A model generated the notes under the pieces. It did not search any database, was not told the DNA's origin, and saw only the letters and a program-made list of their open reading frames with translations. From a virus (taxonomy: Duplodnaviria > Caudoviricetes): DNA of 55,854 nucleotides. Below are positions 5,127 through 28,709 of the stretch, piece after piece. Each line of letters starts with the position of its first letter. The first letter of the stretch is position 1. Position numbers and translations under genes: made by a program. The DNA lies in IMG/VR virus record IMGVR_UViG_3300049050_000058, positions 1 to 55,854 of that record, one strand, 5' to 3'.

Positions 5127-5127
5127 T

Positions 5128-13214: not shown

Positions 13215-13441
13215 TACTTAGGCTCATCCAAGAAAAGATAGTCCTGATCTAATTCATTTAATGTCCAACAATAATCACCAGCACAAGTAGCTTCAACAGT
13301 CCAGACGCCATCAGCTATTTCTGGTACTTGATAGACCCTAAGTTTCTCTTTGTCTCCTTTCCACTCAGGCTTCATTATCCAGAAGAATTGATTGTTTTTT
13401 AAATCTTTAATTTTCAACATAATATTCTCTAATCTTTTCAA
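13214..13441 (-). CDS. hypothetical protein
   Basis: ORF; start may be 13420. Confidence 0.6.
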   Translation of the reverse strand: MKRLENIMLKIKDLKNNQFFWIMKPEWKGDKEKLRVYQVPEIADGVWTVEATCAGDYCWTLNELDQDYLFLDEPK

Positions 13442-13475
13442 GAGCTTTAAAATATTCTTCGTTAGTCATTTTATT

Positions 13476-13787
13476 TCAATCCTCCTTGGGAAACAAATAA
13501 GAATACACTTTCCGTGTAGTTTTGTGTTTACGTTCTTTATCTTTATTCTCTACCTCTTGTAGACAATAGTCATGAATATATTGACAAACAGTCTCGGCAT
13601 GAAGCTTTGATGTACTTTTATAAATGCCATACTTGTCATAAATGTAATCAATAGCTAAATTTTCTATATAACTGTTTCCTATGGAAACACATCTCCAGTA
13701 TTTAAAGCCAAACAGCCTTTGCTGTATCTGAGCATAATACTTGGTGGATACTTCACTTTCTTCCACTGTCAAGTGTTCAAGATTCAT
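13476..13787 (-). CDS. hypothetical protein
   Basis: GGAG SD. Confidence 0.7.
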   Translation of the reverse strand: MNLEHLTVEESEVSTKYYAQIQQRLFGFKYWRCVSIGNSYIENLAIDYIYDKYGIYKSTSKLHAETVCQYIHDYCLQEVENKDKERKHKTTRKVYSYLFPKED

Positions 13788-13793
13788 TTTTGT

Positions 13794-14183
13794 TCATTTC
13801 TCCAAATTAATTGATAAAATAATATCACCAAATTCATAAAATTTAATATTTTGACCAGAATTTTCATATTCGTCACTACCTTCAAACCACTTAACCATAT
13901 ATTCTTTCTCAACATTATTCAAATATTTAATAGAAAACCAGCAAATATCTTTGTATTCCATAATTCTTTGAAATACATCAGAACAATTCACTGCGAATGA
14001 ATTGGTAAAATTTACATGCATCTTACCTATTACTTCATACTCTTTGATTGTGCTAACAGGTCTGTTCAAAGAATGAACACATTTAGTTATATCTAGCAAA
14101 CTAAAAGAATTTACGTATTCAATAGGTACAAAACATTCTTCACAATTCTCAAAACCAAAACTCAAACCGATGATCTCTGACAT
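13794..14183 (-). CDS. hypothetical protein (FENCE motif)
   Basis: AAGGAG SD gives start 14183. Confidence 0.75.
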   Translation of the reverse strand: MSEIIGLSFGFENCEECFVPIEYVNSFSLLDITKCVHSLNRPVSTIKEYEVIGKMHVNFTNSFAVNCSDVFQRIMEYKDICWFSIKYLNNVEKEYMVKWFEGSDEYENSGQNIKFYEFGDIILSINLEK

Positions 14184-14293
14184 GTTTATTCTCCTTAAAT
14201 AAAACAATAGGGATATTTCACCCCCATTTTAAACAAAATAGGAAAAGCATACTAGCATATATCTACCACTATTTAAATTGATTTCTTCGTGCT

Positions 14294-14632
14294 CTATATT
14301 GCATCATTTAGCTTTTTAAGCTCATCTATATACTCCAATGCAAACCCACATTCAGCTCTTGCTGTAAATTTAGGGTTTAAAGACACAAGATACTTTACAG
14401 AAGTCACCCCACAATACTCCAAATAATCCTTAATGTCAATGTCGAAGTGATTGAATAGTCTTTTTAAATATTTTGTAGATGTGTTAGGGATATTGTAAAT
14501 AGGGAGACGAAAACCATATAGCTTTGAAAGCTCTTTCCAATGTTCATCATCTTCGTATTCCAACTGAAGATTATCTTTAGCCCATTGTGCTTTAACTTTT
14601 CTTGCTTCTTGTGCTTTTTGAATATCAAACAT
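14294..14632 (-). CDS. hypothetical protein
   Basis: GAGG SD gives start 14632. Confidence 0.75.
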   Translation of the reverse strand: MFDIQKAQEARKVKAQWAKDNLQLEYEDDEHWKELSKLYGFRLPIYNIPNTSTKYLKRLFNHFDIDIKDYLEYCGVTSVKYLVSLNPKFTARAECGFALEYIDELKKLNDAI

Positions 14633-14770
14633 ATTGCTTATACCTCGATTTCTGACATACACAACAACGGCTCCACGTCCAAAACCCTACTTTCAGTCCC
14701 CGACTGTCAACTACACAGCCCTCTTTGATCACGTCATACCCATGAAAACCAATAATACAAAGAAATCTTT

Positions 14771-14938
14771 TCATTTCCAAATAGCCTCAAGAAGTTTTTC
14801 TTTTTGTTCGGTTGTAAGATAGTCTGCCATGTTAATTAGACTAGTGACACGATGAAGAGTTTTTGTGTGAATCAAATCCATTTCTTCTTTCAATTGTCGA
14901 ATCTTATCCTTATATTCTTTCTTTTCTGAATTCAGCAT
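14771..14938 (-). CDS. hypothetical coiled-coil protein
   Basis: TGATG overlap, GGAG SD. Confidence 0.6.
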   Translation of the reverse strand: MLNSEKKEYKDKIRQLKEEMDLIHTKTLHRVTSLINMADYLTTEQKEKLLEAIWK

Positions 14939-15132
14939 CAATCTTCTCTCCAATATTCTACCTGAACAACTGGATTCCCATAAGCATATCCAGATTTGAT
15001 TTGGAAATTTTTGATCCCAAAGCTCAAACAAAAATCACTAGCACTTTGGAGATTACGAAAAAGCTTTACATGACGTTGTTGTTCTTCGTATTCACCTTCA
15101 AGAATCTTATTTTCTTGTTCAATCTGTTCCAT
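14938..15132 (-). CDS. hypothetical protein
   Basis: GGAGG SD. Confidence 0.65.
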   Translation of the reverse strand: MEQIEQENKILEGEYEEQQRHVKLFRNLQSASDFCLSFGIKNFQIKSGYAYGNPVVQVEYWRED

Positions 15133-15664
15133 GAATTTCCTCCAATCCACTATTTACAATATCTTCTGCCATTTTATAAAGATTTCTATCCCCTTCTTTC
15201 AAGACTTCAAGAAGAAGTTTCTTCTCTTTTAGATAAACTTTAGCAAATTCTCTATCGTGATCAAGAATACTTTTTGTATTTGAGATAATATCTGCAAGTT
15301 TGATAGTTTTACAATCAGGAGATTGTTTTGCAATGTGTTGTCTGTCAATTTCTTTACGTTTTGCTCGGTTACCATCAGATGGTTTACTCACATCTGTCAA
15401 GCCGTCAACCAAGTCTGCCACATTTTCACCAAATTCTTCATAAATGAATTCAAGTGTCAGGTGAGTGTCTTCCACTGTATCATGCAGCAGAGCAGCCGCT
15501 AGAATTTCATCATTGATGTTTTCGTAAGCTGCATAACGAGAAATAATATATTCAACTTCGTAGCAGTGAGTGTGGTACGGTACGCCTGTGTATTTTCTGA
15601 ATTGCCCAAAATGAGCAGTTCTGGCTACCAGTCTAGCATCATCCAAAAACAAATTCATCCCCAT
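15119..15664 (-). CDS. HD-domain hydrolase, RelA/SpoT (p)ppGpp hydrolase/Mesh1-like
   Basis: AHFGQFRKYTGVPYHTH, AAALLHDTVEDT, IKLAD motifs. Confidence 0.9.
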   Translation of the reverse strand: MGMNLFLDDARLVARTAHFGQFRKYTGVPYHTHCYEVEYIISRYAAYENINDEILAAALLHDTVEDTHLTLEFIYEEFGENVADLVDGLTDVSKPSDGNRAKRKEIDRQHIAKQSPDCKTIKLADIISNTKSILDHDREFAKVYLKEKKLLLEVLKEGDRNLYKMAEDIVNSGLEEIHGTD

Positions 15665-15676
15665 TTCAATCACTCC

Positions 15677-15856
15677 TTAATCAAACATCTCAGCACAATA
15701 TTCTGATACGAATAGACAAATATCAATATCTGACATATCCGCATCAACTTTGTATTTCAAATAATCTTTGCCAAGATAACCAAATTGCTCTTCGTTGTAT
15801 TCATGTTCTTCAAGCCATTGACCATCTTCCCAAATCATAATAGTTTTCTTAGACAT
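15677..15856 (-). CDS. acidic hypothetical protein (59 aa, not in ORF track)
   Basis: GAGG SD; MSKKTIMIWEDGQW... Confidence 0.65.
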   Translation of the reverse strand: MSKKTIMIWEDGQWLEEHEYNEEQFGYLGKDYLKYKVDADMSDIDICLFVSEYCAEMFD

Positions 15857-16262
15857 AACCCTCTCCTAAAAATTCTTTTACGTATGTTTGACAAATAAAT
15901 TTAACCATATTTGACTGAGTCATAATAAGTCTTTTCTTTTTCGAGTATTGAAGTTTAACTTTATGGATAATTTTAGAATTTAAAGCTACATGAACTTTGT
16001 AACGACCAAACTTATTGAATGGGGCTTTAAATCCAAACCCTGCGGTAGGTGAAAGAGGCATTTTCATCAGTTCTGCATTCCACTCAACAAAATAGCCGTT
16101 ATGTAATTTTACAGCAGTGTTAAAAGAAATATTGGCAATTTCTTTCAGGTTAGGATCATTCGTATAAAAGAATTTCTCTGTAGGGTGCGCTGAATATTCA
16201 TACCCAAGAGCTTTCATAAAATTCATCAAACTTTTTAGTTGAATACGACTTGTATCAATCAT
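15849..16262 (-). CDS. hypothetical protein
   Basis: AAGGAG SD gives start 16262. Confidence 0.7.
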   Translation of the reverse strand: MIDTSRIQLKSLMNFMKALGYEYSAHPTEKFFYTNDPNLKEIANISFNTAVKLHNGYFVEWNAELMKMPLSPTAGFGFKAPFNKFGRYKVHVALNSKIIHKVKLQYSKKKRLIMTQSNMVKFICQTYVKEFLGEGYV

Positions 16263-16272
16263 AATTTTCTCC

Positions 16273-16461
16273 TTAAATGCTATTTGGCAGGCAGATAAAC
16301 GTGTTGTGTTGATCAATCCCTTTAATGTGAGGAATCTTAACACGTTCACCAGCGTTAATGCAAGCCTGTTCAGTGGTGAACCCTGGGACAACAACTGAAG
16401 ATTGCGATGGTGCATTGTAAACATTCAAAGTAATAATCAAAAGAGTGTAACTAATCATCAT
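16273..16461 (-). CDS. small protein with hydrophobic N-terminus (FTTEQAC motif)
   Basis: GGAG SD. Confidence 0.65.
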   Translation of the reverse strand: MMISYTLLIITLNVYNAPSQSSVVVPGFTTEQACINAGERVKIPHIKGIDQHNTFICLPNSI

Positions 16462-16879
16462 GTTTCTCCACTTTCAGGTTTAATTTTTTAAGATTTTCTA
16501 TACCGCAAGCAAGTCTATATTCGTTTTTATAAACCACTTTGTCAATACCTGATGCAGCAATCATTTCGGAACATTTCAGACATGGACTCAGTGTAACATA
16601 AAGTGTACCACCAACAACACTGACACCTTCCTTCGCTGCCTTCAAGATAGCATTAAGTTCTGCATGTAGTACATGTTCCTTGCTTACAAGATTACCATGT
16701 TCATCCAAATATTCAAGCTGATTTTCACTCCCCGGCGCCATGCCGTTGCAACCCCCAATCAAAACACCATGTTTTGTAACAATGCAAGCTCCGACTTTAG
16801 CTCTGATGCCTTTGCTTAGCTTTGAAAATGATTCTGCTACTTCCATGTATACTCTATCAAGCTCTTTTTGACTGGCCAT
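16451..16879 (-). CDS. dCMP deaminase
   Basis: HAE and SPCxxC motifs, KVGACIV. Confidence 0.92.
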   Translation of the reverse strand: MASQKELDRVYMEVAESFSKLSKGIRAKVGACIVTKHGVLIGGCNGMAPGSENQLEYLDEHGNLVSKEHVLHAELNAILKAAKEGVSVVGGTLYVTLSPCLKCSEMIAASGIDKVVYKNEYRLACGIENLKKLNLKVEKHDD

Positions 16880-16896
16880 TTAAAATAAAATCCTTT

Positions 16897-17178
16897 TCAT
16901 TCAAAATCCTCCTTCTGGATAACATCATTCTTAAGAATATTCATCAAGTCTTTAAAACTCACATTACTACTTGTGTGAATCTTTTTCAGATCGCTCTCTT
17001 TAATCCAAAATTCTCCTTCATGAGAAATAGCTTTATTTTCTGTAAGCGAAGACACTTGATAACTCTTTACAACAGCTCCACTAGGAAACGAAGATGTTTT
17101 TGAACGAATGATTTTCACTGGTGAATCTGATAGAAGAGCAATTTCATTGTAAGAAAAATAATGTTCAGACATTTTCAT
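16897..17178 (-). CDS. hypothetical protein
   Basis: AGGAG SD. Confidence 0.65.
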   Translation of the reverse strand: MKMSEHYFSYNEIALLSDSPVKIIRSKTSSFPSGAVVKSYQVSSLTENKAISHEGEFWIKESDLKKIHTSSNVSFKDLMNILKNDVIQKEDFE

Positions 17179-17241
17179 CTCCTTTGTTTGGAATATCTTT
17201 TTCTAAATAAACTCTGACAGTATAAGTTATTTACCTACTTA

Positions 17242-17520
17242 TTAATATTTACGCTGACCCTTGCGAGTACCAACACCTCGAACGCTAACCCCACCACTTT
17301 CCAATTTAGATTTAGTTTTCTGAATTTTACTAGCTTTCACTGTATATTTACCCTTCCCGTACAACTCATCGCATTTTTGCTGTGCTTTGTCTCGTTTACT
17401 TGTTTTAAAATAAACATAGTTTTGCATAGCATCGACTACGAAAAAAGTTGCAGGGTCAATAAAATCATATTCTGTATATTGTTCATAAGTTACTACTACA
17501 ACTTGAACATCTTTATTCAT
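17242..17520 (-). CDS. conserved phage hypothetical protein
   Basis: ORF with basic C-terminus. Confidence 0.7.
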   Translation of the reverse strand: MNKDVQVVVVTYEQYTEYDFIDPATFFVVDAMQNYVYFKTSKRDKAQQKCDELYGKGKYTVKASKIQKTKSKLESGGVSVRGVGTRKGQRKY

Positions 17521-17665
17521 ATTCTAGTTCTTCTTTGATTGCCCAGTAAGTTTCCCCTAGCATAGCTTCTTGTTGTGTATTATTCCAGCTTTTAATTTCA
17601 TCAAAATCATCCATCACTTCAACAATCTCCGCTTCAATATAGCTTTCTAGTCTTTTACCAATCAT
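17513..17665 (-). CDS. small acidic protein (50 aa, not in ORF track)
   Basis: AAGGAG SD; MIGKRLESYIEAEIVEVMDDF... Confidence 0.65.
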   Translation of the reverse strand: MIGKRLESYIEAEIVEVMDDFDEIKSWNNTQQEAMLGETYWAIKEELEYE

Positions 17666-17674
17666 TTTATCTCC

Positions 17675-17962
17675 TTACAGCACAGGAATAGGAAATGGAG
17701 CAAAGCTAACAAAATCTTCTGAATACCCATCTTCAATCTTGTAGCGAATGTAATAAGATTCTAGGCGATTCTCTTTTGGTTTGCAAGAGAATTGTGCATA
17801 GATGAAATCTCCAATCTTCACAGCAGCAAGAGAACGTGATGTTTCCCAGTTACGAGTGATATAGCAAAAACCAGCTTTGTCCAGATTTTGATCTAGAATA
17901 CGATTGAATTTATTTGGTGAAATAACACGTTTGTATTGATGATTTTTATTTTTACGTTTCAT
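17675..17962 (-). CDS. hypothetical protein
   Basis: GGAGG SD, ATGA overlap. Confidence 0.7.
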   Translation of the reverse strand: MKRKNKNHQYKRVISPNKFNRILDQNLDKAGFCYITRNWETSRSLAAVKIGDFIYAQFSCKPKENRLESYYIRYKIEDGYSEDFVSFAPFPIPVL

Positions 17963-18147
17963 TGATTTTCCTCCATTGCTTTCTTTAAAGCTTCTCTTAC
18001 AGTTGTTCCATGATAAAGTTTTTCACTGTATACATCGTTGTCTGAAGATATTGTTACAAGATAACCATCAACAACATAAAGAATTTCAACTTGTTGGTGT
18101 AGTGTACTCATTTTCTCTAACCAGTCAATCATTTTACTATCGCTCAT
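17959..18147 (-). CDS. hypothetical protein (MSDSKMIDWLEK...REALKKAM)
   Basis: AGGAG SD gives start 18147. Confidence 0.75.
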   Translation of the reverse strand: MSDSKMIDWLEKMSTLHQQVEILYVVDGYLVTISSDNDVYSEKLYHGTTVREALKKAMEENQ

Positions 18148-18164
18148 CGGTCGTTCTCCTGGGG

Positions 18165-18374
18165 CTATTCGCAGCGGAAAACTTCCGCGCACACTGATTG
18201 AAAATCTCGCTTGGTTTTTGCCGGATCGCGGCCAAACCACTCTTCTGCATTGCGCGCCAGATCTTCCCTGGCCTCTGACCATCCGCCACCTCGCCGGATA
18301 GCCAGAACTCGCACTTGGTCGCCAAGGGTCTTGCACCTCGACAGGCGTGTTTCTGAGCAGAGGAATACTCCCAT
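18165..18374 (-). CDS. GC-rich hypothetical protein (MGVFLCSETRLSRCK...)
   Basis: GGGGTG SD directly after the upstream stop. Confidence 0.6.
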   Translation of the reverse strand: MGVFLCSETRLSRCKTLGDQVRVLAIRRGGGWSEAREDLARNAEEWFGRDPAKTKRDFQSVCAEVFRCE

Positions 18375-18375
18375 C

Positions 18376-19179
18376 TCACACCCCCTCGCCCTTGGCCAGA
18401 TGCGGCGCAGCCTCAAACAAAGCATCGAGCAGGGCGTCCACGTTGCGTGCGTCACACCAGTCCAGGCCCTGCGGATCGTTTTCGTACAGCCACGCGCTTG
18501 CGGCCTTGGCCATGGCTTCGCGGGCACCTTCCGGCATCACCACCGCCCTCTGCTGTTCGGATGCAGGCGGGGTGGGGGCGGAACGTGAGTTCAGACGCCT
18601 AGCCTCTGAGACACCATCTCGCCAGCCAGCGTCATAAGCAGGGCTGCACGAACTCAGTGCTACCGGATCAATCCACTCATCATCCGGCACCCCAGCAGCA
18701 GCAGGCGGGGCGGAGAGCGCGGCAACCCGTTTCTCCAGCTCGCCGACGACTTCGAACCAATTGGCGTTGTCGACCTCAAGCCCCGCTAGGGTTGCGAGCC
18801 GCTTAAACAGATCGCCCAGGTTGTAGTTGGCATCGTCATGTCTGGCCATGATGCGCTGATGTTGGGCAACGGTCATCAGGGGCACACGACCCTCGTATTG
18901 CTCTGAGCTAACGCCGAACGAATGCGAGAATCCGTCCTGTACCAGATCGTCAGGGTTGGCCCAAGCAACCACTTCCACCTCTTCCCCATCCTGGATATGG
19001 GCAGGGGATTTAAAAAGCGGATCGGCATCAATAAAAACTTCATCAGGAACATCTTCATATCCTTCACGAATAGCTTCAAAATCACCTTCACTCCACAGCC
19101 TTAGAAACCACATCGAATCAGAAGGTCCATCACATTTTTCAAGTGCATACTTAATTGCTGCTACTGCTGAATCATTCAT
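18376..19179 (-). CDS. mosaic hypothetical protein, AT-rich 5' part and GC-rich remainder
   Basis: AGGAG SD gives start 19179; composition switches near 19020. Confidence 0.75.
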   Translation of the reverse strand: MNDSAVAAIKYALEKCDGPSDSMWFLRLWSEGDFEAIREGYEDVPDEVFIDADPLFKSPAHIQDGEEVEVVAWANPDDLVQDGFSHSFGVSSEQYEGRVPLMTVAQHQRIMARHDDANYNLGDLFKRLATLAGLEVDNANWFEVVGELEKRVAALSAPPAAAGVPDDEWIDPVALSSCSPAYDAGWRDGVSEARRLNSRSAPTPPASEQQRAVVMPEGAREAMAKAASAWLYENDPQGLDWCDARNVDALLDALFEAAPHLAKGEGV

Positions 19180-19894
19180 TTGTATTCTCCTTTTTAGATT
19201 GTTTCGGGACAAGATCGTATTTCTTTTTAATTTCAGCTACGCCTTGCTTGATTCCATTTTGCACAGCTTGTTTGATTTCGTCAAGTAGGTTGAATTGCTC
19301 TTCTGGCTCTTCATCCTCTTCTTGAACACTTTCAACTAAAGTTTGCCGATAATCATACATTTTCTCAAGACGTTCTGCAAGCTGGTCAGCATCAAAATAA
19401 AACGGAGTACCTTTGATAACATCTTCTAAATCATCAGGGCTCAGAAAACCACTATACACATCTTCATACAACTTACGAAGCTGTTTTCGTGAGAAATTGG
19501 CATGTTCATAAATATCTGTATCTTTTGCCATTAACCCATATGTGCTCGTGTGGATCATCAGATTTGACGTATCATCAAGGACATGTTCCCTACACGACAA
19601 AGCAAGAATACTACCCGCAGAGCTACAAGCAGGACCAATAATTGCTACAGTGTGTGCTGGAGTATTGAACAATGCTCGTTTAAAAAGCATTGCTGTGTCT
19701 AGTATACCACCATCTGTGCAAATATCTAACACAATTGTGTCCATTTCTGTAGCAGTGTTAATTAGATTCAATTCGTCAAGATAATCCCCAGGATTTCCAA
19801 TATCTTCATAAATTTGAATAACGTGAGTATTTGCTACTGTTTGATTAGTTGAAATACGTGATGGTTTTTGCATCAGGTTATCATCATTTCGCAT
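19172..19894 (-). CDS. ClpP-like serine protease
   Basis: TDGG, ACSAGS, LMIH motifs. Confidence 0.85.
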   Translation of the reverse strand: MRNDDNLMQKPSRISTNQTVANTHVIQIYEDIGNPGDYLDELNLINTATEMDTIVLDICTDGGILDTAMLFKRALFNTPAHTVAIIGPACSSAGSILALSCREHVLDDTSNLMIHTSTYGLMAKDTDIYEHANFSRKQLRKLYEDVYSGFLSPDDLEDVIKGTPFYFDADQLAERLEKMYDYRQTLVESVQEEDEEPEEQFNLLDEIKQAVQNGIKQGVAEIKKKYDLVPKQSKKENTNE

Positions 19895-20686
19895 TTAAAT
19901 CTCCTTAATATTTTCAGCAGAACCTTCTTTTTCAAAGATTTCAACAAAAGCTCGGGTCAAACCTGATCTTACAATGTCTGCTGGGGTAAATTCAACCACA
20001 GAGCAGTTTGGAAGATTGTGTTTTTTAATCAGATTTGCAAGGTATACAATACCAGAAACACCTTTCACGTCTCGTTGTTTATCATCTCCACAAAATGCTA
20101 CCTGACTTCCTTCTTCCAGTCGAGTGACAATTGAACGAACCTCTTCAACTGACAAATTCTGAGATTCATCGAGAATCAAAAATGTCCCTGAAGGGAAAGA
20201 CATGCCACGAATAGCCTCTAGTGGTTGGATTTTAATTGTTTTACTAAATTCTGCTTGATATCGATGATCCCCAATTCGTTCTCTGATGACGTTAAGGATT
20301 GGTGCAACATACGGAGCAAGTTTTTCCTCCACACTCCCAGGCCAGAAGCCTGTGCTTTTCCCCATCGGAACATAAGCCCTGGCAACAATAATTTGTTTAA
20401 TCTCACCTTTCAAATATTTATTTGCAGCTACAGCCGCTGCACACCACGTTTTACCGCTTCCGGCACTTCCTTTCCCAACACTAACAGTATCGAATTGAAG
20501 ACTGTGTAGATATTTTTTCTGATTTTCATTCTTCGCAATAATTGGTTTTGCTTTATGTTCTTCTGCAAATTTCTCTTTAACTTCAGGTTTCACTCCACCA
20601 TTACGAGTTTTACGAGTGCGTTTACGTGGTACTTCAACTTCAATGCCATCTATTTCAAGCTTAATCATTCGATCCCGGGCACCCAT
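19895..20686 (-). CDS. phoH: PhoH-family ATPase
   Basis: GSAGSGKT, RGMSF, ILDESQN, GDDKQRD, DIVRSGL. Confidence 0.92.
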   Translation of the reverse strand: MGARDRMIKLEIDGIEVEVPRKRTRKTRNGGVKPEVKEKFAEEHKAKPIIAKNENQKKYLHSLQFDTVSVGKGSAGSGKTWCAAAVAANKYLKGEIKQIIVARAYVPMGKSTGFWPGSVEEKLAPYVAPILNVIRERIGDHRYQAEFSKTIKIQPLEAIRGMSFPSGTFLILDESQNLSVEEVRSIVTRLEEGSQVAFCGDDKQRDVKGVSGIVYLANLIKKHNLPNCSVVEFTPADIVRSGLTRAFVEIFEKEGSAENIKEI

Positions 20687-20687
20687 G

Positions 20688-20882
20688 TTAAATTCCTTCT
20701 GCTTGTTTAATAATTTCAAAAACTTGTTTTACGTAGTCAGGAACATTATCTTCTTCGATTTCAAGAATTTCTGATTCTGTGTCAATAACTTTTTTATCAT
20801 AATACTTAAGTGTAACAAGGTCTTGAACATATCCCGAAGTTACAAAACCAATGGTTACATGAAACTCAATTTTATTTTTCAA
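20688..20882 (-). CDS. hypothetical protein
   Basis: AAGGA SD, TTG start overlapping upstream stop. Confidence 0.6.
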   Translation of the reverse strand: MKNKIEFHVTIGFVTSGYVQDLVTLKYYDKKVIDTESEILEIEEDNVPDYVKQVFEIIKQAEGI

Positions 20883-21196
20883 TTTAGATTTCCTTTTTCT
20901 AGGGAAAACATTTCAATGTAAGGGAGAATCACTTCACTCATATTGAAATACAGATTTTCAACAGCTTTTTGGTATTTGTTATAGTCTTCTGAGTTATAGA
21001 AATCATCCACAGCTTTCATGCTTTCTTCTGTAGCTTCTTTCTTAAAATTCTTAAGAAGTTTTTCAGCTTCTTTTTCAAAGCTTTTACTATCCACCAAAGC
21101 TACAGCTTGATTATATTCTTCATCATCTTGCACTACAACCGCTGCTGCATGCTTTAGAGCATTTTTGATGGCCAATTCAACTTGTTCAGAATTCAT
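20879..21196 (-). CDS. hypothetical protein
   Basis: GGAG SD. Confidence 0.7.
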   Translation of the reverse strand: MNSEQVELAIKNALKHAAAVVVQDDEEYNQAVALVDSKSFEKEAEKLLKNFKKEATEESMKAVDDFYNSEDYNKYQKAVENLYFNMSEVILPYIEMFSLEKGNLN

Positions 21197-21666
21197 TAGT
21201 TTTCTCCATTAGTTTTTAAGATAGCTTGAGTCATCACTTCACGAGAACGATTGAAGCAATCAAGGGATTTTCCAACTTCTTTCAACTCTTCATAGCTCAT
21301 GTTCTCTAGCTGTTCACGAGTGTACTTGATATTTGAAGAATGGTCAAGATTGACAAATTCACACGTTTTGAAGTGCATAAAATTATAATTCAAGCTGTCA
21401 TAGTTTGGTGAATAACCCTGGATAACAAGCTGTTGGAATTTCTTTACAAAATCATATTTATCTCGTTCAGAAATAAACACTGTAACTTCTTTGGTGTAAT
21501 CAATTGTATCAAGTTGTTCTACGAAATAAACATCCAATTGCAACATTCCAGTAGACCATTCTGTAATATCTGATTTGTTTTCCAGAAAATGATAACCTTG
21601 TTTGATAGCGTTTTCAAACTCTGAAAACACATTAACAGGGTTGGACCCAATAATCAATTTTTCCAT
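21196..21666 (-). CDS. hypothetical protein with C-terminal Rho-N/HeH-like helical motif
   Basis: YTREQLENMSYEELKEVGKSL pattern. Confidence 0.7.
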   Translation of the reverse strand: MEKLIIGSNPVNVFSEFENAIKQGYHFLENKSDITEWSTGMLQLDVYFVEQLDTIDYTKEVTVFISERDKYDFVKKFQQLVIQGYSPNYDSLNYNFMHFKTCEFVNLDHSSNIKYTREQLENMSYEELKEVGKSLDCFNRSREVMTQAILKTNGEN

Positions 21667-21667
21667 T

Positions 21668-21874
21668 TCACTTCTCCTTATCACTCAGTAGAAAATCTGC
21701 AATCCCAACCAATAGCCAAACAGGCCAAAATAGTGAAAGAGTCCAGACAATTACCGATAGAAAAACACCCTCTTTAATCTCTCTATGCTTAACCATATCT
21801 GCAACTACAGCTCTACTAAATTTATGTGTAATCAGTAGATATAAAGCCGTTAAAACAATGTATATGATAGTCAT
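21668..21874 (-). CDS. membrane protein
   Basis: two TM segments, LFWPV motif. Confidence 0.7.
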   Translation of the reverse strand: MTIIYIVLTALYLLITHKFSRAVVADMVKHREIKEGVFLSVIVWTLSLFWPVWLLVGIADFLLSDKEK

Positions 21875-22164
21875 TATTTATTCTCCTGCACGGCTGTATC
21901 AATTTCGTTAAGAGCGCGACACATTTCAGCGTCAAAATATTCTGGTGTGTGACCGAAATCCCTTACAGATCCTTCACGCAGTCTCCGGTAGATCAATGCA
22001 TCTTTCCGAAGTGATTCACATTCTTCCTCAAGGTCTTCTAAGAAAATATTTAAGCTTGCACATTTATCCCTAAGGCGAGAAATTTCGTCTCTTGCTGCCG
22101 AATTCAGAGTCCCAAGACGCATAATTTCATCTTTGAGGTAGTCACAATCAGTTTTATCATTCAT
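21874..22164 (-). CDS. coiled-coil hypothetical protein (LRKDAxxYRxLR)
   Basis: AGGAG SD. Confidence 0.7.
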   Translation of the reverse strand: MNDKTDCDYLKDEIMRLGTLNSAARDEISRLRDKCASLNIFLEDLEEECESLRKDALIYRRLREGSVRDFGHTPEYFDAEMCRALNEIDTAVQENK

Positions 22165-22325
22165 TTAAAATCTCCTTTCAATTTATCAATCGCTTCCTCA
22201 ACAATCACACCAGCAATGTACAGCTTCATAATATGCTTTGCTTGTTCATCAGTCAAGGTGTGAACAGAAAAATGTGTCTTCACTTCATCACAATATTTTT
22301 GGAAAGAAATCATTTTTGTAGCCAT
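22161..22325 (-). CDS. small hypothetical protein (54 aa, not in ORF track)
   Basis: AAGGAGG SD; first gene after leftward promoter. Confidence 0.7.
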   Translation of the reverse strand: MATKMISFQKYCDEVKTHFSVHTLTDEQAKHIMKLYIAGVIVEEAIDKLKGDFK

Positions 22326-22355
22326 TATGGATTCCTCCTTTGTTTACGTTCTCTC

Positions 22356-22383
22356 ATTGTACCACAAATTTTTGTAAGGTCAA
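22356..22383 (-). promoter_or_regulatory. leftward sigma70 promoter
   Basis: TTGACC-16-TACAAT with TG. Confidence 0.7.
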
Positions 22384-22416
22384 CACACCACATCAAAAAT
22401 ATTTTTAACAGAGAGC

Positions 22417-22444
22417 TTGCAAAATCCTGAATACATGATATAAT
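22417..22444 (+). promoter_or_regulatory. rightward sigma70 promoter
   Basis: TTGCAA-16-TATAAT with TG. Confidence 0.7.
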
Positions 22445-22448
22445 ATGA

Positions 22449-22825
22449 CCCGTATGTAGAGAGAAATCTCTACTCGGAATGAGAGAGATATGTGGTGCCA
22501 CAAGGCCATGCTCACCGACTCACTCTTAAAGAGAAGAAGATAGCACATGCTCAAACTGTGGGATTGTGAGGCTATAACAGTGTGCAGACCTCGTGCAAGA
22601 GGGAAATAGCCAAGTGAAGAGATTTGCATAAGAGACTTCACCGATGCACTTGACAGGATCAGGTGTCCAGCTTAGGCTGGCTACGTTATGACGACTCAGA
22701 GAGATGTTGTTGAGGTAGATTGCAGAATCATAATGTTTCCTCTAAGGCAGGCATTGGTCTGTATGGGGAGATAAGGGATTCTTCAATCTACTTATTCTGA
22801 TCTAGAGAGATGTGTATACTACATA
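22449..22825 (+). ncRNA. candidate long structured non-coding RNA/leader
   Basis: no credible ORF; many consecutive and nested stems including a GAAA tetraloop. Confidence 0.55.
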
Positions 22826-22837
22826 GGAGAAAAATAG

Positions 22838-23365
22838 TTGAACTTAAAAGAATATCTAAATATAAGAAATGCTAAGATGAAAAGTAAGAAAGCTCTTTCT
22901 AACAAAGAAGCAAAAGCTCTTGGCATCAGGATTAACACTAAAGGGTGGTATGAAGCGAATAAAGAATTGAAAATAGACGACGAACGTCTCTATAAAATGA
23001 TTAAAGACGTTCTAAAATCTAATACGATAGATACAAGATGTAAATCTCAGTTGGAACCCTTACTTCACTTTTCTGAAGATTTTGATGAACAACTGTTGTA
23101 TTTAATGGAAAACTCTTTCGGTTACAGAAAGATAGGTATAAGTAAAAACCCAAGAAAACGTGCAATGTCTTTGAGTAATTCGTCTGGTATTTCTGTTTGG
23201 ATGATTGCATACTGGAAAGTCAAATCCAAAGCGTTTGATGTAGAGCAATATTTACACAGACAGTTTATGGATTTCAGAGTAAAGGGAGAGTGGTTTTTAA
23301 AAGAAAACATTACAGTTGATAGCATTGAGAAAAATATCAAATGTGAGTATCAAAGGCTACTGTAA
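22838..23365 (+). CDS. GIY-YIG superfamily nuclease (T5orf172/MUG113-like)
   Basis: LYLM..KIGISKNPRKR..VEQYLHRQF..RVKGEWF; AGGAG SD. Confidence 0.85.
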   Translation: MNLKEYLNIRNAKMKSKKALSNKEAKALGIRINTKGWYEANKELKIDDERLYKMIKDVLKSNTIDTRCKSQLEPLLHFSEDFDEQLLYLMENSFGYRKIGISKNPRKRAMSLSNSSGISVWMIAYWKVKSKAFDVEQYLHRQFMDFRVKGEWFLKENITVDSIEKNIKCEYQRLL

Positions 23366-23573
23366 GCAGTATAGGGTTTCTTTTACCTGCTACTTTTCAA
23401 ACCAAGAGAATGATTAAATACTACTAAGCAGGTAAGAGGTAAGGAGAAACGTGGAAGGATAAGTTAGTAAATACAATAGAAATAATTTCAACATATATTG
23501 ACTTTCGCTAGTATGAATATGTAATAATACACTTAATGACCAGAACAACAATAACAAACAGGAATTTAAGTGT

Positions 23574-23783
23574 ATGAAATGTTTAGCTTGTGACTGCTTC
23601 CTTAGAGAATCAGAATTGAATATGAAAAAAGAAGATGGTAGTTTTGAAGATATGTGTACAGATTGTCGTAGAGTTTCATACGGACATGAATACATGGAAA
23701 TCAGAGAATATCAATTCCAACATCTAACAGAGATGATCCAAAACTACTTTTATATGAAAAATATTCAATCAGAATACGATTAA
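23574..23783 (+). CDS. small Zn-finger protein (CxxC...CxxC)
   Basis: MKCLACD...DMCTDCR; AGGA SD. Confidence 0.75.
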   Translation: MKCLACDCFLRESELNMKKEDGSFEDMCTDCRRVSYGHEYMEIREYQFQHLTEMIQNYFYMKNIQSEYD

Positions 23784-23785
23784 AC

Positions 23786-23815
23786 TTGACAAATACTAAT
23801 AATATAGTATATACT
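23786..23815 (+). promoter_or_regulatory. sigma70 promoter
   Basis: TTGACA-18-TATACT. Confidence 0.6.
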
Positions 23816-23821
23816 ATAGCT

Positions 23822-23926
23822 TATATAGTGAATAAAAATATTTCTCCTAAATCACATGTCTTCTCCTTCATGTGATCCTCCAATAACCCTTGGTGATTTC
23901 TCCTAGCCAGGGGTTATTTCTTTTTC
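23822..23926 (+). ncRNA. candidate sRNA with four anti-SD (CUCC/CUCCU) motifs
   Basis: two hairpins with TTCTCCT loops; second hairpin followed by U-rich tail. Confidence 0.55.
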
Positions 23927-23943
23927 TAAGAAGGATTGTCAAT

Positions 23944-24324
23944 ATGGCATTCGATCATAGTAGTCATGCTAAGAAGATTGGCATGAAAAAAGGTGAAACC
24001 AGAAATCCAAACGGTTCTCCTACAAAAGTACGTATCACTAAGAGCCCTCTTCGTAAAACTGCTGAATCACTTCGTGAAGTGGAAGAGGATGCTCTTAAAG
24101 CTATCAAGCTTGCTGTGAAAGGTCAAGAGGTTGATAAGACACAACTTGAAACAGCTAAGTGGTTGATTGGTATGATTCAAACAATAGATAAATCTGCTTC
24201 TCAAGAAGAAGTAGCAGCAGCTAAGATTCGACTAGAAGCTAAAAAAGCACAAGAGAGTGGTGCTGGTGTTGAAGATGTACACCAAGCGGATATAGTTGAA
24301 TTTACTTTAGATATTGTTCAATAA
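23944..24324 (+). CDS. probable terminase small subunit
   Basis: KKGETRNPNG motif; upstream of terL; AAGGA SD. Confidence 0.65.
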   Translation: MAFDHSSHAKKIGMKKGETRNPNGSPTKVRITKSPLRKTAESLREVEEDALKAIKLAVKGQEVDKTQLETAKWLIGMIQTIDKSASQEEVAAAKIRLEAKKAQESGAGVEDVHQADIVEFTLDIVQ

Positions 24325-24473
24325 TTCAGGGCGACCTGATATCTTCGACTATTGCCTAGTCCCGAAGAAACTAATACATAAAACCAACTTATGTATTTTT
24401 ATTGTGGAGAGGGAAGACATTTTGGTCTTTCAGTGTCAGAAGACAGGAAGCGTGGTCTCTGACAAATATTTAT

Positions 24474-24549
24474 GTTTGGGTAGCTCAATTGGCAGAGCAA
24501 CGGTCTCCAAAACCGTAGGTTGTTGGTTCAACTCCAACCCCATTCGCCA
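24474..24549 (+). tRNA. tRNA-Trp (CCA)
   Basis: ACGGT-CTCCAAA-ACCGT; TTCAACT loop; encoded CCA; two U-U mismatches in acceptor stem. Confidence 0.85.
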
Positions 24550-24555
24550 TTTCTT

Positions 24556-24627
24556 GCATCCGTACCCAAGTGGAATGGGACCAATTTTGTAAGTTGGAAG
24601 CCGTCAGTTCAAATCTGACCGGATGCT
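24556..24627 (+). tRNA. tRNA-Thr (TGT)
   Basis: GCATCCG/CGGATGC; CCAAT-TTTGTAA-GTTGG; TTCAAAT; no full CCA. Confidence 0.85.
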
Positions 24628-24629
24628 CC

Positions 24630-24704
24630 GCGTTCATAGTTTAATTGGCAAAACCCTAGACTTCCAATCTAGTGTTCCCAGATCGTTACTGGGTGGACGC
24701 TCCA
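24630..24704 (+). tRNA. tRNA-Gly (TCC)
   Basis: GCGTTCA/TGGACGC, U discriminator, CTAGA-CTTCCAA-TCTAG, CCA; T-loop ATCGTTA. Confidence 0.88.
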
Positions 24705-24741
24705 ATCACCCCTTATATGAAAATTATAAAAGGAAGGGGAT

Positions 24742-25578
24742 ATGCAGCAAATAATCACAATTCCAAGTTCTACCGTTTATAGTGATCTTTATGTTCTAGC
24801 TGGTATTGCAAACACTAGAAGTTTAACGATCACCAACAATACTTCTGATCCTATTTTTGTAAATCAATCAACTTCAAGTCCTCCTGACGAATCTCAAGCA
24901 TTTGTTATATACGAAAACCAAACAGTGTTGATTCAAGCAACTGGAAAGGCATTGTGGGTTAGGGGTAATACAGGTCCAGTAATTGTTCAAACTTTCACAG
25001 ATACTATTATTCCCGTATCTGGAATTGACCCTAGAGTTTATTCAGGGGACCAAGCTTTCACTGTTCAAAGCTTCACAGAAGCCAACTGCAAAAATGGAAC
25101 TCAATACGAACTCACTACATATGATGCAGCTTTTGCTGCTGGTGTAAATAGAGATTTCATTGTAATAACTGGGAATAAACCTGTCCTCATTAAGAATAGA
25201 TTTTTTCAGTTTACAGGTTCACAAATAACAACCAATATTTATAAAAATCCAACTTACACTGGTGGAACACCTGTTACATATTATAATCTTTCAGATAGAA
25301 ATCCTGTTTTGGGTACTGTGCAGATTTTATCTACCCCTACTGTAACCAATACAGGGACTCAGATTTCTCCAACAACAGTTATATTAGGAAACATTCCTCA
25401 AACAGGTCAAGCAATTGTAGCATCTAATGCCGAAAATTCTGTGTCAGGTTTAGAGAGGGTTTTAAATTCAAATAGTGTTTATCTTTTTAGAGTTACAAAC
25501 TCTTCTGCAAATTCCATGTTTTATTCCACAAGAACTACATGGTATGAAGGCGGGTTGAGTGTGAATCAACAGATTTAA
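24742..25578 (+). CDS. beta-rich hypothetical protein, possibly virion-associated
   Basis: 278 aa, T/S/N rich; between tRNAs and terL. Confidence 0.75.
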   Translation: MQQIITIPSSTVYSDLYVLAGIANTRSLTITNNTSDPIFVNQSTSSPPDESQAFVIYENQTVLIQATGKALWVRGNTGPVIVQTFTDTIIPVSGIDPRVYSGDQAFTVQSFTEANCKNGTQYELTTYDAAFAAGVNRDFIVITGNKPVLIKNRFFQFTGSQITTNIYKNPTYTGGTPVTYYNLSDRNPVLGTVQILSTPTVTNTGTQISPTTVILGNIPQTGQAIVASNAENSVSGLERVLNSNSVYLFRVTNSSANSMFYSTRTTWYEGGLSVNQQI

Positions 25579-25718
25579 TACCAAAACACTTAAGTAGTTT
25601 TATAGATGATCTTTTTTTTGAGGATCATCACTTAAAATTATTTAATAATATATTGACTTACAATCAGTTAATTATGATACAATTCATTTATAAATAAAAA
25701 TTCTAACGGAACTAACTA

Positions 25719-27203
25719 ATGCAAAAGAAAAAAAAGTTAGGTCCTGCCAGTAAAAAACAAGAGATGTTTTTGAAAAGCAATGCTAACATCATTGTCTATG
25801 GTGGGGCAATGGGTGGTGGTAAATCTTTTTGTGGACTACTCCGTCACCTAAGATGGGTGAATGATCCTAATTATCGTGGTTATATTGTTCGTAAAAACCA
25901 AACCACGATTATGAAAAGTGGTGGTCTTTTTGATGAAGCTACTACTCTTTATAGAACTTTTGATCCGAGAGTAAAAGTTAATAAAAAAGCAATGACTTTT
26001 ACTTTTCCAAGCGGAGCAATTATTGCTGCTGGACACTTGGAAACAGATAATGATGCTGAAAAGTGGCGTGGTCTTCAAGTCTCTGCTGCGATGCTCGACG
26101 AAGCCACTCAAATTTCAGAAGACCATACTCTGGTTATTCTTTCTCGTTTGCGTTCTAAGGCAAACATGATTCCAAACCTTTTCCTCACATGTAACCCATC
26201 ACCAGATTCATTTCTAAGGCGCTGGATTGATTGGTGGATTATCCCCAAAGGTGAGGAAAATGCTGGACGTCCTAATCCAGAAAGAGATGGTAAAATTCGA
26301 TGGTTCATTCGTCTAAACAATGAAATGATTTGGGCAGATACCAAAGAAGAGTTGATGGAAATTTATGGAAGTAGAGACGAAAACGGAATTCTTTATCCAG
26401 ATGATAGCGAAGATCAACATTGTCGTCCACTTTCCTTACAATTCATCAGCGCCACAATCTATGATAACCCTCCACTGATTAAATCTCAACCCGGCTATCT
26501 TGCAAACCTTCAAGGTTTGAAGCGTGTTAAAAAAGAACGTGATTTATATGGTAACTGGGATATCAGGGAAGACGCTGCTGGTTTCTGGAAATCAGAATGG
26601 CTAGGCGAACCAGTAAATGAACATGAATTAGAAATTGTTCAGTATTGTAGAGCTTGGGATATTGCAGGAACACTTCCTTGTGAAGCTCTTCCTAATCCTG
26701 ACTGGACTGCTGGTGTTCTTATTGGTAAAACCAAACAAGGAATTTATGTAGTTTTGGATGTTATTAGATTCCGAGCAAGATTTGGTGAAGTTATTCAAAG
26801 AATTGTTCAAACTGGTTTAGAAGACCCTGATGGAACGACAATCATTCTTCCACAAGAACCCGGACAAGCAGGTAAAGCTGCTGGGCAGATGATGATTAGA
26901 GAATTAGTTAGTGAAGGATTGTACGCTCGTATGCGTCCTTCTAATAAATCTAAAATTGTCCGTTTTCAACCATTCGTTGCAGCCTCTGAAGCTGGGTTAG
27001 TTCGATATGTTCGTGGTGAATGGAATGACATGTATTTTTCAGAACTAGAAAGTTTCGATGGTAGTAGGTCAAACAAGGATGACATGGTGGATTCAACAAG
27101 CGACGCTTTTATAACTCTTGCTCAGAAAATTCAACTTCCCAATTTCTTGAGTGGATTGCAATCTGCATCCGCATCCCTTGTTTCACATAATCCTTTCAAT
27201 TAA
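25719..27203 (+). CDS. terL: terminase large subunit
   Basis: YGGAMGGGKS, LDEATQ, TCNP, RAWDIA, KDDMVDSTSDA. Confidence 0.95.
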   Translation: MQKKKKLGPASKKQEMFLKSNANIIVYGGAMGGGKSFCGLLRHLRWVNDPNYRGYIVRKNQTTIMKSGGLFDEATTLYRTFDPRVKVNKKAMTFTFPSGAIIAAGHLETDNDAEKWRGLQVSAAMLDEATQISEDHTLVILSRLRSKANMIPNLFLTCNPSPDSFLRRWIDWWIIPKGEENAGRPNPERDGKIRWFIRLNNEMIWADTKEELMEIYGSRDENGILYPDDSEDQHCRPLSLQFISATIYDNPPLIKSQPGYLANLQGLKRVKKERDLYGNWDIREDAAGFWKSEWLGEPVNEHELEIVQYCRAWDIAGTLPCEALPNPDWTAGVLIGKTKQGIYVVLDVIRFRARFGEVIQRIVQTGLEDPDGTTIILPQEPGQAGKAAGQMMIRELVSEGLYARMRPSNKSKIVRFQPFVAASEAGLVRYVRGEWNDMYFSELESFDGSRSNKDDMVDSTSDAFITLAQKIQLPNFLSGLQSASASLVSHNPFN

Positions 27204-27224
27204 TTTTTATAAAAAGGAACAAAA

Positions 27225-28709
27225 ATGGCAGAAGAACAGATTGTTCCTCTTACTCAAGGGGAAGATTCACCTATTCCCTCTATTCGTTTAAGTCAAGTTT
27301 CATTCAACGGTCTTAATGTTTTTGCTGGTAATGTTTATGAAGATTGTAATCATGAGCTACGCTGGCCTAATGCGATTTTTACTTATAAGAAAATGGCTAA
27401 AGATGCCACAATTGCTCCAGCACTGTCCCTTGTCGAAATGGCAATTGCAAGAGTTCCATGGAGTGTAAAAATTCCAGAAGGTTACGAAGACAAGTTAAAA
27501 GATAAAGCTGAATTCTTACGTCAAGTAATGAATGACATGGAACACAGTTGGGGACATTTTATCCGTCAATGCGTCACTTTCAACCGCTACGGTTTTTCTG
27601 TACATGAGAAAGTATACAGAAAGCGCTATAGGGAGAAAGGAAGTAAGTATAATGATGGATTGATTGGATTACACTCTCTCCCACTTATTACTCAAGACTC
27701 GATTGAATCTTGGGATTGGGATAGTTCGGGAAGAAAACTAATCGGTCTTTATCAATATAAAAATAAGCCCACAGGTAAAAACAAAGCACAATATATTCTT
27801 GTAGATGAAGATCAATGGATTCCTCGTAAAAAGTTTCTACATTTCCGTAACAATGCTTTGAAAGATGACCCTGTTGGGATTAGTCCGTTGGCTAGTTGCT
27901 ATGTTGCTTGGAAGTACAAAACAGAGCTTGAGAAGTTTGAAGGCACAGGTGTCGCCAATGATGCTAGAGGTCTTAAACATCTGAAACTTAATCCAAGATA
28001 TATGGACCCTAACGCTTCTCCTGAAGATAAAGCTGTTTATGCTTACTATCAAAATATGATGCGTAATCTTCACATGGGGGAACAAAGTGGCATTATCACC
28101 CCATCTTTAAAGGATGATAATGGTGCTGAAATGATTGCTGAATTTGAACTTCTTGGCGTCAGTGGGAGTAAGGCTTACGATGTTAGTAAAATTATTTCTC
28201 GTTATCAGAAAGAAATTATTACTTCACTAATGGCTTCTCAATTGATTCTTGGACAAGACGGTGGAGGTAGCTTTTCACTTGCTGAATCTCTCCAAGGTAT
28301 TTCTGATATGGCTATTGAATCTAAGTTGATTGAAATTCAAGAACAACTTAATCACGATTTAATTCCTCAACTGTTTTCGTTAAATGGTTGGAGTACAGAA
28401 GTTACCCCATATTTTTCATTTGGTGATCTTAAGTCTCCCGATCTTGATGTTCTGTCTAAATTTATTCAACGAGTTGCTGCTGTTGGTATGATGAGTCAAG
28501 ACCCGAGCACTATCAATTGGCTCGCTGAACAAGCCAACATGCCAACTCCTTTTAAAGACCCAACTGTTGATATAAACATTGCCCGTGAACAACTTACAGG
28601 GGCTTCTAGTAGATCAGGTGATGGAATGCAAGATGGACTTCCTTCTGGGACAGGAGCTGCTGACGGATCATCTGGAGATGGTTCAACTTCTAATACGGAG
28701 AATGTGTAA
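27225..28709 (+). CDS. portal protein
   Basis: 494 aa after terL; GGSFSLAES and LNHDLIPQLFSLNG motifs. Confidence 0.9.
   Translation: MAEEQIVPLTQGEDSPIPSIRLSQVSFNGLNVFAGNVYEDCNHELRWPNAIFTYKKMAKDATIAPALSLVEMAIARVPWSVKIPEGYEDKLKDKAEFLRQVMNDMEHSWGHFIRQCVTFNRYGFSVHEKVYRKRYREKGSKYNDGLIGLHSLPLITQDSIESWDWDSSGRKLIGLYQYKNKPTGKNKAQYILVDEDQWIPRKKFLHFRNNALKDDPVGISPLASCYVAWKYKTELEKFEGTGVANDARGLKHLKLNPRYMDPNASPEDKAVYAYYQNMMRNLHMGEQSGIITPSLKDDNGAEMIAEFELLGVSGSKAYDVSKIISRYQKEIITSLMASQLILGQDGGGSFSLAESLQGISDMAIESKLIEIQEQLNHDLIPQLFSLNGWSTEVTPYFSFGDLKSPDLDVLSKFIQRVAAVGMMSQDPSTINWLAEQANMPTPFKDPTVDINIAREQLTGASSRSGDGMQDGLPSGTGAADGSSGDGSTSNTENV

Follow-up and report, generated by a model that had tools for sequence, protein, structure and literature searches.

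In this study, we found that positions 23786-23930 of the window, by which we mean the whole IMG/VR virus record of 55,854 bp, hold a conserved and structured RNA element on the plus strand, which displays repeated pyrimidine motifs resembling anti-Shine-Dalgarno (anti-SD) sequences in its loops and linkers. Support for the RNA, for its strand and for its conservation is strong, and we regard all three as close to certain. The element lies at the head of the late module, which carries the packaging and structural genes. A structured plus-strand RNA with anti-SD-like loops had been proposed in a first-pass annotation of the DNA, and this proposal was borne out by conservation in relatives and by covariation in two helices in unfitted alignments.

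The promoter-like site, the four CU-rich motifs, the hairpins and the U-rich tail noted in that annotation were all found in their places. The promoter-like site is of the sigma-70 type (TTGACA-18-TATACT, 23786-23815, plus strand, with TTGACA at 23786-23791 and TATACT at 23810-23815). The sequence is present as had been claimed, with 11 of 12 matches, and it was the best site in a scan over 20000-28000; its activity as a promoter is a prediction, and promoter-like sites as a class were not enriched (27 found vs 24.7 expected). It is unchanged in both near-relative contigs that cover the stretch. A more distant phage, L004 (the same as L003; 70% identical), was reached through the 126-aa protein of the first late gene of the window and has a different structured sequence at the locus; it carries TTGACA-17-TATAGT at the equivalent relative position, after the upstream stop codon. 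The RNA start is predicted near 23822. Two AT-rich inverted repeats (ATACTA...TAGTAT and TACTATA...TATAGTG) at 23793-23830 overlap the -10 region and the predicted RNA start, and they could be the operator for a regulator of this promoter.

The first anti-SD-like motif, TTTCTCCT (RNA UUUCUCCU), lies unpaired ahead of the hairpins at 23841-23848 (+), and in a longer fold its UCCU pairs weakly (4 bp) with the AGGA in the SD of the next gene. It is followed by a hairpin at 23851-23876 (+) with the perfect 8-bp stem that had been described (ATCACATG at 23851-23858 and CATGTGAT at 23869-23876) and a loop of TCTTCTCCTT (RNA UCUUCUCCUU). This hairpin is unchanged in three of three near-relative contigs, and contig L038 has a similar one in which a C-to-U change faces G. 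Between the two hairpins, the linker contains AUCCUCC (DNA ATCCTCC, 23875-23881, plus strand); its counterpart in the alignment is TCTTTC, the 3' arm of helix H2 in the relatives, of which it may be a remnant. The annotation had likened GATCCTCC to the 3' end of 16S rRNA. This likeness is not family-wide, as the TCCTCC of the window aligns with TCTTTC, CCTTGG or similar sequences in a model-fitted alignment.

The last hairpin, H3, occupies 23882-23918 (+), and its loop, GAUUUCUCCUA, contains the DNA motif TTTCTCCT. The hairpin and its motif-bearing loop were thus present as proposed, but RNAfold gave the stem 13 pairs including one U.G instead of a perfect 12. The U-rich tail UCUUUUUCUAA follows at 23919-23929 (+) and is terminator-like in the window, where a 13-bp stem and an 11-nt loop precede the tail UCUUUUUCU; a terminator scan listed only an inner 5-bp version as terminator-like, and termination at the tail is a prediction from these features. 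The tail aligns with the UUUCUAA box found 3' of H3 in relatives, to which it is homologous. No other part of the element is as variable in the near relatives, where T has changed to C twice and a single nt has been lost twice.

The plus-strand fold of 23822-23930 has an energy of -26.7 kcal/mol (RNAfold; z = -5.25) and was equalled by none of 200 shuffles. The fold of the minus strand is weaker (z = -2.11), with 5 of 200 shuffles as good. The element is the sole cluster of at least three such CU motifs on both strands of the 55.8-kb window. Clusters of at least four motifs arose in 10 of 300 dinucleotide shuffles, so the clustering is modestly unusual and motif density alone is weak evidence. 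The strong support for the element is comparative.

The canonical element of the family heads the late operon, often abuts the 3' end of a tRNA and consists of five parts, H0 to H4. The first, H0, is a hairpin beginning GUUUCACC, in many cases with a CU motif in the adjoining linker. An example of an H1 stem is GCUGUC...GACAGC; its loops are of the kind AUUUCCUCUCCUAA, and ACUUAAAGA comes after it. In H2, AAAGA/UCUUU closes the base, and UCCUCCUCUCCUC is an example of the loop. A stem of 11-16 pairs with the loop (U)CCUCUCCU(U) makes up H3, and UUUCUAA comes next; in H4, an outer helix joins this box to UUAGAAA just ahead of the first late gene. The loop motif is UCUCCU in the window and CCUCUCCU in most relatives. 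Three hairpins (H1-H3) carry it in the relatives, while the window has two such hairpins and two linker motifs. By this comparison, the window element is a trimmed member of the family that lacks H0 and H4 and has its own promoter-like site. The loop sequences are fixed while the loop length ranges from 7 to 20 nt, which would fit pairing through a short seed more readily than recognition of one fixed site by a protein. After H3, UUU(U)CU was found in 18 of 24 aligned members and no U-tract in the other 6, and in some relatives H3 is nested inside a longer stem. By these observations, a free terminated small RNA is not a feature of the whole family.

The helices are supported by covariation. 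RNAalifold returned no pairs on the raw MAFFT alignment of H1-H3, which was out of register, and covariation was then counted on alignments of single modules. In the unfitted MAFFT alignment of H3 (20 sequences), all 14 pairs were altered on both sides, with 63 double-change cells against 31.4 in shuffles (0 of 500 reached 63), and the pairing was 68.6% against 40-54% when the partner was slid. After fitting to the covariance model R1, which describes the H3 module, H3 was 75.4% paired with 87 double-change cells against 38, figures that lean towards the structure since they are fitted. For H2, likewise unfitted and with 20 sequences, both-side changes were found in 9 of 12 pairs, with 45 double-change cells against 19.3 (0 of 500) and 77% pairing against at most 57%. 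The signal in H0/H1 was modest on the raw alignment of 21 sequences (69.3% paired vs 64.6% shuffled; 18 double-change cells vs 8.4), and 10 of 17 pairs were altered on both sides, a count reached by 12 of 500 shuffles.

The H3 helix also indicates the strand, because it contains 38 G.U cells and 11 A.C cells. This bias points to the plus strand as the RNA and argues against both a minus-strand RNA and a site read on DNA. The model R1 was matched at 24 places in 461 kb, never more than once in a locus and always on the late-gene strand. In the window, its sole match in 55.8 kb lies at 23876-23932 (31 bits, E = 0.0043), which is partly by construction as the window is among the 20 seed sequences; L004, which is outside the seed, was matched at E = 0.028. 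Among near relatives of 95-99% identity, 23838-23920 is unchanged in three of three contigs, and one of these relatives has 12 substitutions in 150 nt of coding sequence just upstream of the element. The changes that do fall inside the element are in an A-rich spacer and in the tail.

The window is judged 62% complete and has a G+C content of about 37%, with a local peak at 18001-20000 (0.47 against about 0.35 around it) where a 267-aa gene of unassigned function and a ClpP-like protease gene are found. The large terminase subunit (TerL) of the window has 43-46% identity to those of Otagovirus-like Pseudomonas phages of roughly 95-100 kb. Genes on the minus strand at 9851-22641 include those for dCMP deaminase, HD phosphohydrolase, ClpP-like protease and PhoH. 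On the plus strand, a 175-aa protein with MUG113/T5orf172 domains, which is homing-endonuclease-like in PHROGs, is encoded at 22838-23365, just upstream of the late-operon head; in the relative L034/L065, an insert likewise parts the RNA element from the terS-like gene. A Cys-rich ORF of 69 aa follows at 23574-23783 (+), and then a 160-nt spacer which holds the element. The first late gene, of 126 aa, and its SD, AAGGA, take up 23931-24324 (+), and its ATG lies at 23944. Only its position makes it terS-like: domain and family searches assigned the protein to no family, the PDB gave no match, and a DUF5681 match was found in 1 of 13 homologues. Through this protein, a 99%-identical contig that carries the same element was also found. 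Genes for tRNA-Trp/Thr/Gly at 24474-24704 lie downstream of the element, between the 126-aa gene and a 278-aa gene, and the order then continues with TerL, portal and structural genes. In most relatives the tRNA array is instead upstream of the element. A separate tRNA-Met lies at 820-894 of the window.

The distribution of the family was followed in loci collected by a TerL-based scan (47 loci) and a terS-based scan (36 loci). Alignments of terS were too divergent for locus scans, and the L046 protein alone retrieved only itself. Upstream of the terS-like gene, where the first-pass annotation had recommended a look in related phages, a cluster of at least three motifs on the strand of the gene was present in 22 of 34 loci; on the minus strand such clusters were found in none of the 34. 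Other CU clusters in the loci were few, lay inside coding sequence and had no hairpins. Among the 12 terS-centred loci without a nearby cluster, the element lies 1.4-3.7 kb further upstream in 8, where an 898-aa tail-fibre gene or another insert stands between it and the terS-like gene; the remaining 4 comprise 3 short contigs and 1 locus without a whole-record scan. By hand count, 37 further IMG/VR contigs carry at least two, and up to six, hairpins with (C)CUCUCCU-type loops on the late-gene strand, a figure that omits the doubtful L079 and L014 as well as L008, which has one hairpin only.

All nine whole records of relatives that were examined (G001-G009) contain the element, which occurs exactly once in each of the six that R1 matches significantly. 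R1 under-counts, as it missed the true elements in G003 and G005 and reached only E = 0.83 in G001. The motif-cluster scan found one element in G005, and those of G001 and G003 were located by a pattern scan. This strict DNA pattern scan gave 29 stretches, of which 12 had no supported element and were taken as chance and 17 were true. In 8 of the 17 true matches, the element directly follows the CCA end of a tRNA with a gap of 0-1 nt, and this position suggests release by tRNA processing. L004 has a degenerate tRNA-like stretch at 2831-2903 (Rfam tRNA, 21.5 bits, below threshold), between its element and the terS-like gene. The structured sequence of this phage contains UAUCCUCCUCC and a 13-bp hairpin with the loop UUCCUCUCCUCCU.

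The terS-like gene begins 241-343 nt from the element start in 8 loci, and a tail-fibre or other gene comes first after the element in 6. In L136, for example, an 898-aa tail-fibre-like gene at 3435-6131 (minus strand) is first after the element and precedes the terS-like gene, and several relatives are arranged likewise. The supposed anchor upstream of terS thus fits the many members in which the element is next to a terS-like gene, but the true anchor is the head of the late operon. Within the TerL match of L054, a group I intron was found at 5768-6010 (Rfam RF00028, 81 bits). In L011-L014, L019 and L023, the TerL matches extend over 1.7-2.2 kb rather than 1.5 kb, which suggests insertions in those genes.

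Searches for known families and for cultured carriers set this element apart. Rfam 15 gave no match for the window element at E <=10 and none in 12 relatives at E <=1, including none to CsrB/Rsm; L004 matched Rfam ar14 weakly (20.2 bits, against a gathering score of 58.8). Neither blastn with a full element nor tblastn with the terS-like protein gave a hit in 50,697 deposited phage records. The order PhoH, divergent region, tRNA array and TerL recurs in five cultured Otagovirus-like phages, and no cluster of at least three motifs was found in the 11-15-kb loci around TerL in any of the five. R1 also found nothing in their whole records, and an empty R1 answer alone means little. A search for the host through TerL in genome contigs gave only distant matches, of 35% and 30% identity. 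To our knowledge, few regulatory RNAs of lytic phages have been described, and we know of none with an array of anti-SD loops; our literature search likewise found no description of such a phage RNA. The catalogue of 10,006 viral RNA candidates in PMC10690425 contains neither 'Shine-Dalgarno' nor 'pyrimidine' in its main text, and it may list parts of the element anonymously. By the Rfam, sequence and literature searches together, the RNA family is previously undescribed.

The first-pass annotation had called the element a candidate small RNA. That it is a structured plus-strand RNA was upheld, and a discrete RNA keeps the status of a candidate. The gap between the end of the tail (23929) and the start codon (23944) is only 14 nt. 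This leaves no room for a promoter, so late transcripts made here carry the element, which must double as their 5' leader. The safest description is a late-operon leader that is possibly also freed as a small RNA, by partial termination in the window and by processing in relatives.

The loops were compared with the start regions of phage genes, with early and late genes called crudely for this analysis. The hexamer AGGAGA was found ahead of the starts at 915, 2584, 3456 and 22838, as the annotation had claimed, and in the window 15 of 58 strand-consistent early/middle genes have it upstream, compared with 2 of 38 late ones (p = 0.013). Perfect complements of at least 7 nt to the loops occur in 20 of 58 early/middle against 2 of 38 late start regions (p = 0.0009), and under a stricter gene filter in 15 of 45 against 1 of 37 (p = 0.0005). 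In complete relatives, each compared with its own loops, the corresponding early and late counts were 25/77 and 5/31 (G006), 15/85 and 4/29 (G007), 18/84 and 3/31 (G002), and 23/88 and 1/32 (G009). When the window and these four relatives were pooled, the counts were 96 of 379 early/middle against 14 of 160 late; the direction was the same throughout, and the contrast was individually significant in 2 of the 5 genomes. By perfect-match count, the loops thus complement early/middle SDs more than late ones, in agreement with the first reading of the sequence. Duplex energies showed no difference between early and late start regions (medians -7.5 vs -7.2 kcal/mol, p = 0.39), and the difference between loop and 16S-tail energies was marginal (p = 0.048). 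When the start regions of the five phages were set against the loops of each, the 5 x 5 matrix was not diagonal, and foreign loops fitted equally well. The sole hint of a fit to the own loops came from G009, whose loops are rich in CCUCC and where 33 of the 92 SDs of GGAG type read GGAGG, compared with 39 of 272 for the four remaining genomes. As any strong SD matches the loops, the early/late contrast may only reflect stronger SDs of the early genes.

Several known systems share single traits with the element. In the late leader of phage lambda, PR'-6S RNA-tR', a host-type promoter, a short structured leader and a terminator-like hairpin stand immediately upstream of the late genes, and the window element, with its promoter-like site and terminator-like tail, resembles this arrangement. 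On the other hand, no Q-like antiterminator was recognised among the 25 window proteins scanned, the anti-SD loops are conserved here, and the terminator-like tail is not kept in the relatives. The species 1 and 2 RNAs of T4 and the 3'ETS-leuZ sponge of E. coli are stable RNAs made with tRNA operons. Their likeness to the element, compared by position alone, lies in the place at the 3' end of a tRNA array; we know of no anti-SD loop arrays in them. Staphylococcus RNAIII and the Rsa RNAs carry a UCCC motif. PMC4615179 describes such C-rich-loop RNAs of Staphylococcus as having hairpin loops with one short pyrimidine motif that pairs with the ribosome-binding sites (RBSs) of targets. The repeated pyrimidine loop motif is common to both, but the motif, the host group and the architecture differ, and there is no Rfam match.

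The closest likeness is to the cuckoo/alpha-r14 RNAs of Alphaproteobacteria (CcsR1-4 = RSs0680a-d, NfeR1; Rfam ar14, RF02344). According to PMC4615179, these RNAs have two to four adjacent hairpins with one shared anti-SD-like loop motif on freely varying stems, a design that the phage family has in common with them. According to PMC10746234, NfeR1 blocks the translation of ntrB through three redundant anti-SD seeds. The loop motif of the cuckoo/alpha-r14 RNAs is CCUCCUCCC, whereas that of the phage family is CCUCUCCU or UUCUCCU: UUCUCCU stands in the loops of the window and (C)CUCUCCU in those of most relatives, and only L004 has loops like CCUCCUCC. L004 also stays below the gathering score of RF02344, and the window does not match it. 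In addition, the phage RNA belongs to a virulent-type phage, is single per genome, is fused to a tRNA array and a late operon, and has the extra parts H0 and H4. The likeness is most likely convergent. By analogy, the phage RNA may work like a cuckoo/NfeR1 RNA without being a member of that family, a reading to which we give slightly less than an even chance.

An anti-SD riboregulator of the cuckoo/NfeR1 type that pairs with mRNAs is the mechanism that fits best, and we put it forward tentatively, with nearly as much reason for it as against it. Under this mechanism, 23786-23930 would encode a plus-strand RNA of about 105 nt transcribed from the host-type promoter, and this RNA would at the same time serve as 5' leader for the late operon of packaging and structural genes. 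The last hairpin and the U-rich tail would stop a part of the transcripts and so yield a free small RNA, which in relatives would be released by processing at the tRNA junction and at H4. Three or four pyrimidine-only anti-SD-like motifs, shown in hairpin loops and linkers, would act redundantly by base-pairing with GGAGA-type SDs and keep 30S subunits off those messages. By complementarity, the best candidate targets are early/middle mRNAs of the phage itself, and possibly mRNAs of the host, and the putative result is a shift of translation towards late genes with weak SDs. Transcription, termination or processing, and all of these targets are what we infer from the element and its surroundings, and RBS occlusion with an early-to-late switch, as the first-pass annotation had suggested, would be its presumed outcome. 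A search for RNA runs that contain the stretch returned none. A consensus host-type promoter implies early transcription, which is a poor fit to a late switch unless the RNA builds up slowly. According to bioRxiv 10.1101/2025.11.27.690947, anti-SD-like pyrimidine-rich 8-mers in B. subtilis repress an RBS in vivo, even from hundreds of nt away, and are depleted from genes. This suggests that a conserved, exposed array is unlikely to be neutral. The sites in that study are single synthetic or incidental ones acting in cis in B. subtilis, whereas the phage element is a conserved structured array.

Those observations in B. subtilis (bioRxiv 10.1101/2025.11.27.690947) also speak for a purely cis-acting leader, since the 8-mers there act in cis over hundreds of nt. 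In such a leader, the amount of transcription or translation that enters the late genes would depend on the hairpins together with the last stem and its U-tail, with no targets in trans, possibly by attenuation or antitermination, by long-range masking of late SDs on the same transcript, or by 5' stabilisation or processing. We consider it rather unlikely. It agrees with the short distance from tail to start codon, by which every late transcript from here carries the element, and with the constant position at the late-operon head, regardless of which gene comes first; the conserved H4 ties the box 3' of H3 to the stretch immediately ahead of that gene, and the longer fold pairs the first motif with the SD of the terS-like gene. 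Good loop complements are, however, rare in late start regions (the 14 of 160 given above), the cis pairing predicted in the window is only 4 bp, and H3 is not terminator-like in many relatives. No antiterminator gene was recognised among the 25 different window proteins scanned, which are a minority of the window genes, and loops that stay constant while the stems vary freely argue for some partner that recognises the loops. In another reading, a protein would dock on the loops in place of mRNA. In CsrB/RsmZ and similar protein-sponge RNAs, one loop motif is repeated on variable stems, and the three or four repeats here, in loops that are almost purely pyrimidine, resemble this design. A docking site for a host protein that binds single-stranded pyrimidines, such as ribosomal protein S1 or a cold-shock protein, or for a phage protein, with the RNA as a sponge or assembly platform, is nevertheless improbable in our view, as the loop length and the place of the motif in the loop vary widely, which would be unusual for a protein site. 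In addition, no RNA-binding protein was recognised among the same 25 proteins, and the small upstream ORF differs between the window and L004.

Terminase recognition sites typically consist of repeated short boxes, and the CTCTCC boxes with their inverted repeats adjoin the terS-like gene in many members, as might be expected if the small terminase (at a pac-type site) or another protein bound them as DNA. We regard a signal read on DNA as very improbable. The asymmetry between G.U and A.C cells would be meaningless for duplex DNA, compensatory changes keep the pairing, an insert of 1.4-3.3 kb parts the element from terS in at least 6 relatives, and the element often abuts the 3' end of a tRNA. 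The minus strand has the least to recommend it, and we give it hardly any weight. Its loops contain GGA, in keeping with the AGGAGA-loop sponge for CsrA/RsmA that the annotation had offered as a second model, and the window holds a 16-codon mini-ORF there, MKEKTCDLGEIFLFTI, with GGAGG 5 nt ahead of its ATG. The sponge is disfavoured by the G.U bias, by the orientation of the elements and by the weaker fold; G.U pairs turn into A.C mismatches on that strand, which also has no T-tail and, despite its GGA loops, which are found only there, no CsrB/Rsm match in Rfam. In 13 of 23 elements there is no SD-led ORF of at least 12 codons, and the ORFs found encode unrelated peptides.

The RNA described here is a covariation-supported family that occurs once per related genome examined, at a fixed junction where the tRNA array ends and the late operon starts, and we know of no studies of late regulation in the phage clade that carries it. 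The same design has been proven in rhizobia to silence mRNAs at their RBSs. In its boldest form, which we hold to be doubtful, an uncultured myovirus-like clade with genomes of about 90 kb would make a ribosome-mimic RNA, cut from a precursor of tRNAs and late operon, that masks strong GGAGA-type SDs of early/middle and host messages through three or four exposed anti-SD loops. Translation would thereby pass to the late genes with weak SDs, and the RNA would be an RNA-only temporal switch and host shut-off device of a lytic phage. If the anti-SD mechanism is true, it would be a protein-free route by which a phage re-allocates ribosomes between gene classes, and the element would be a compact natural part for SD-specific translational control. 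If the element acts in cis only, it would still define the late-operon leader of this phage clade.
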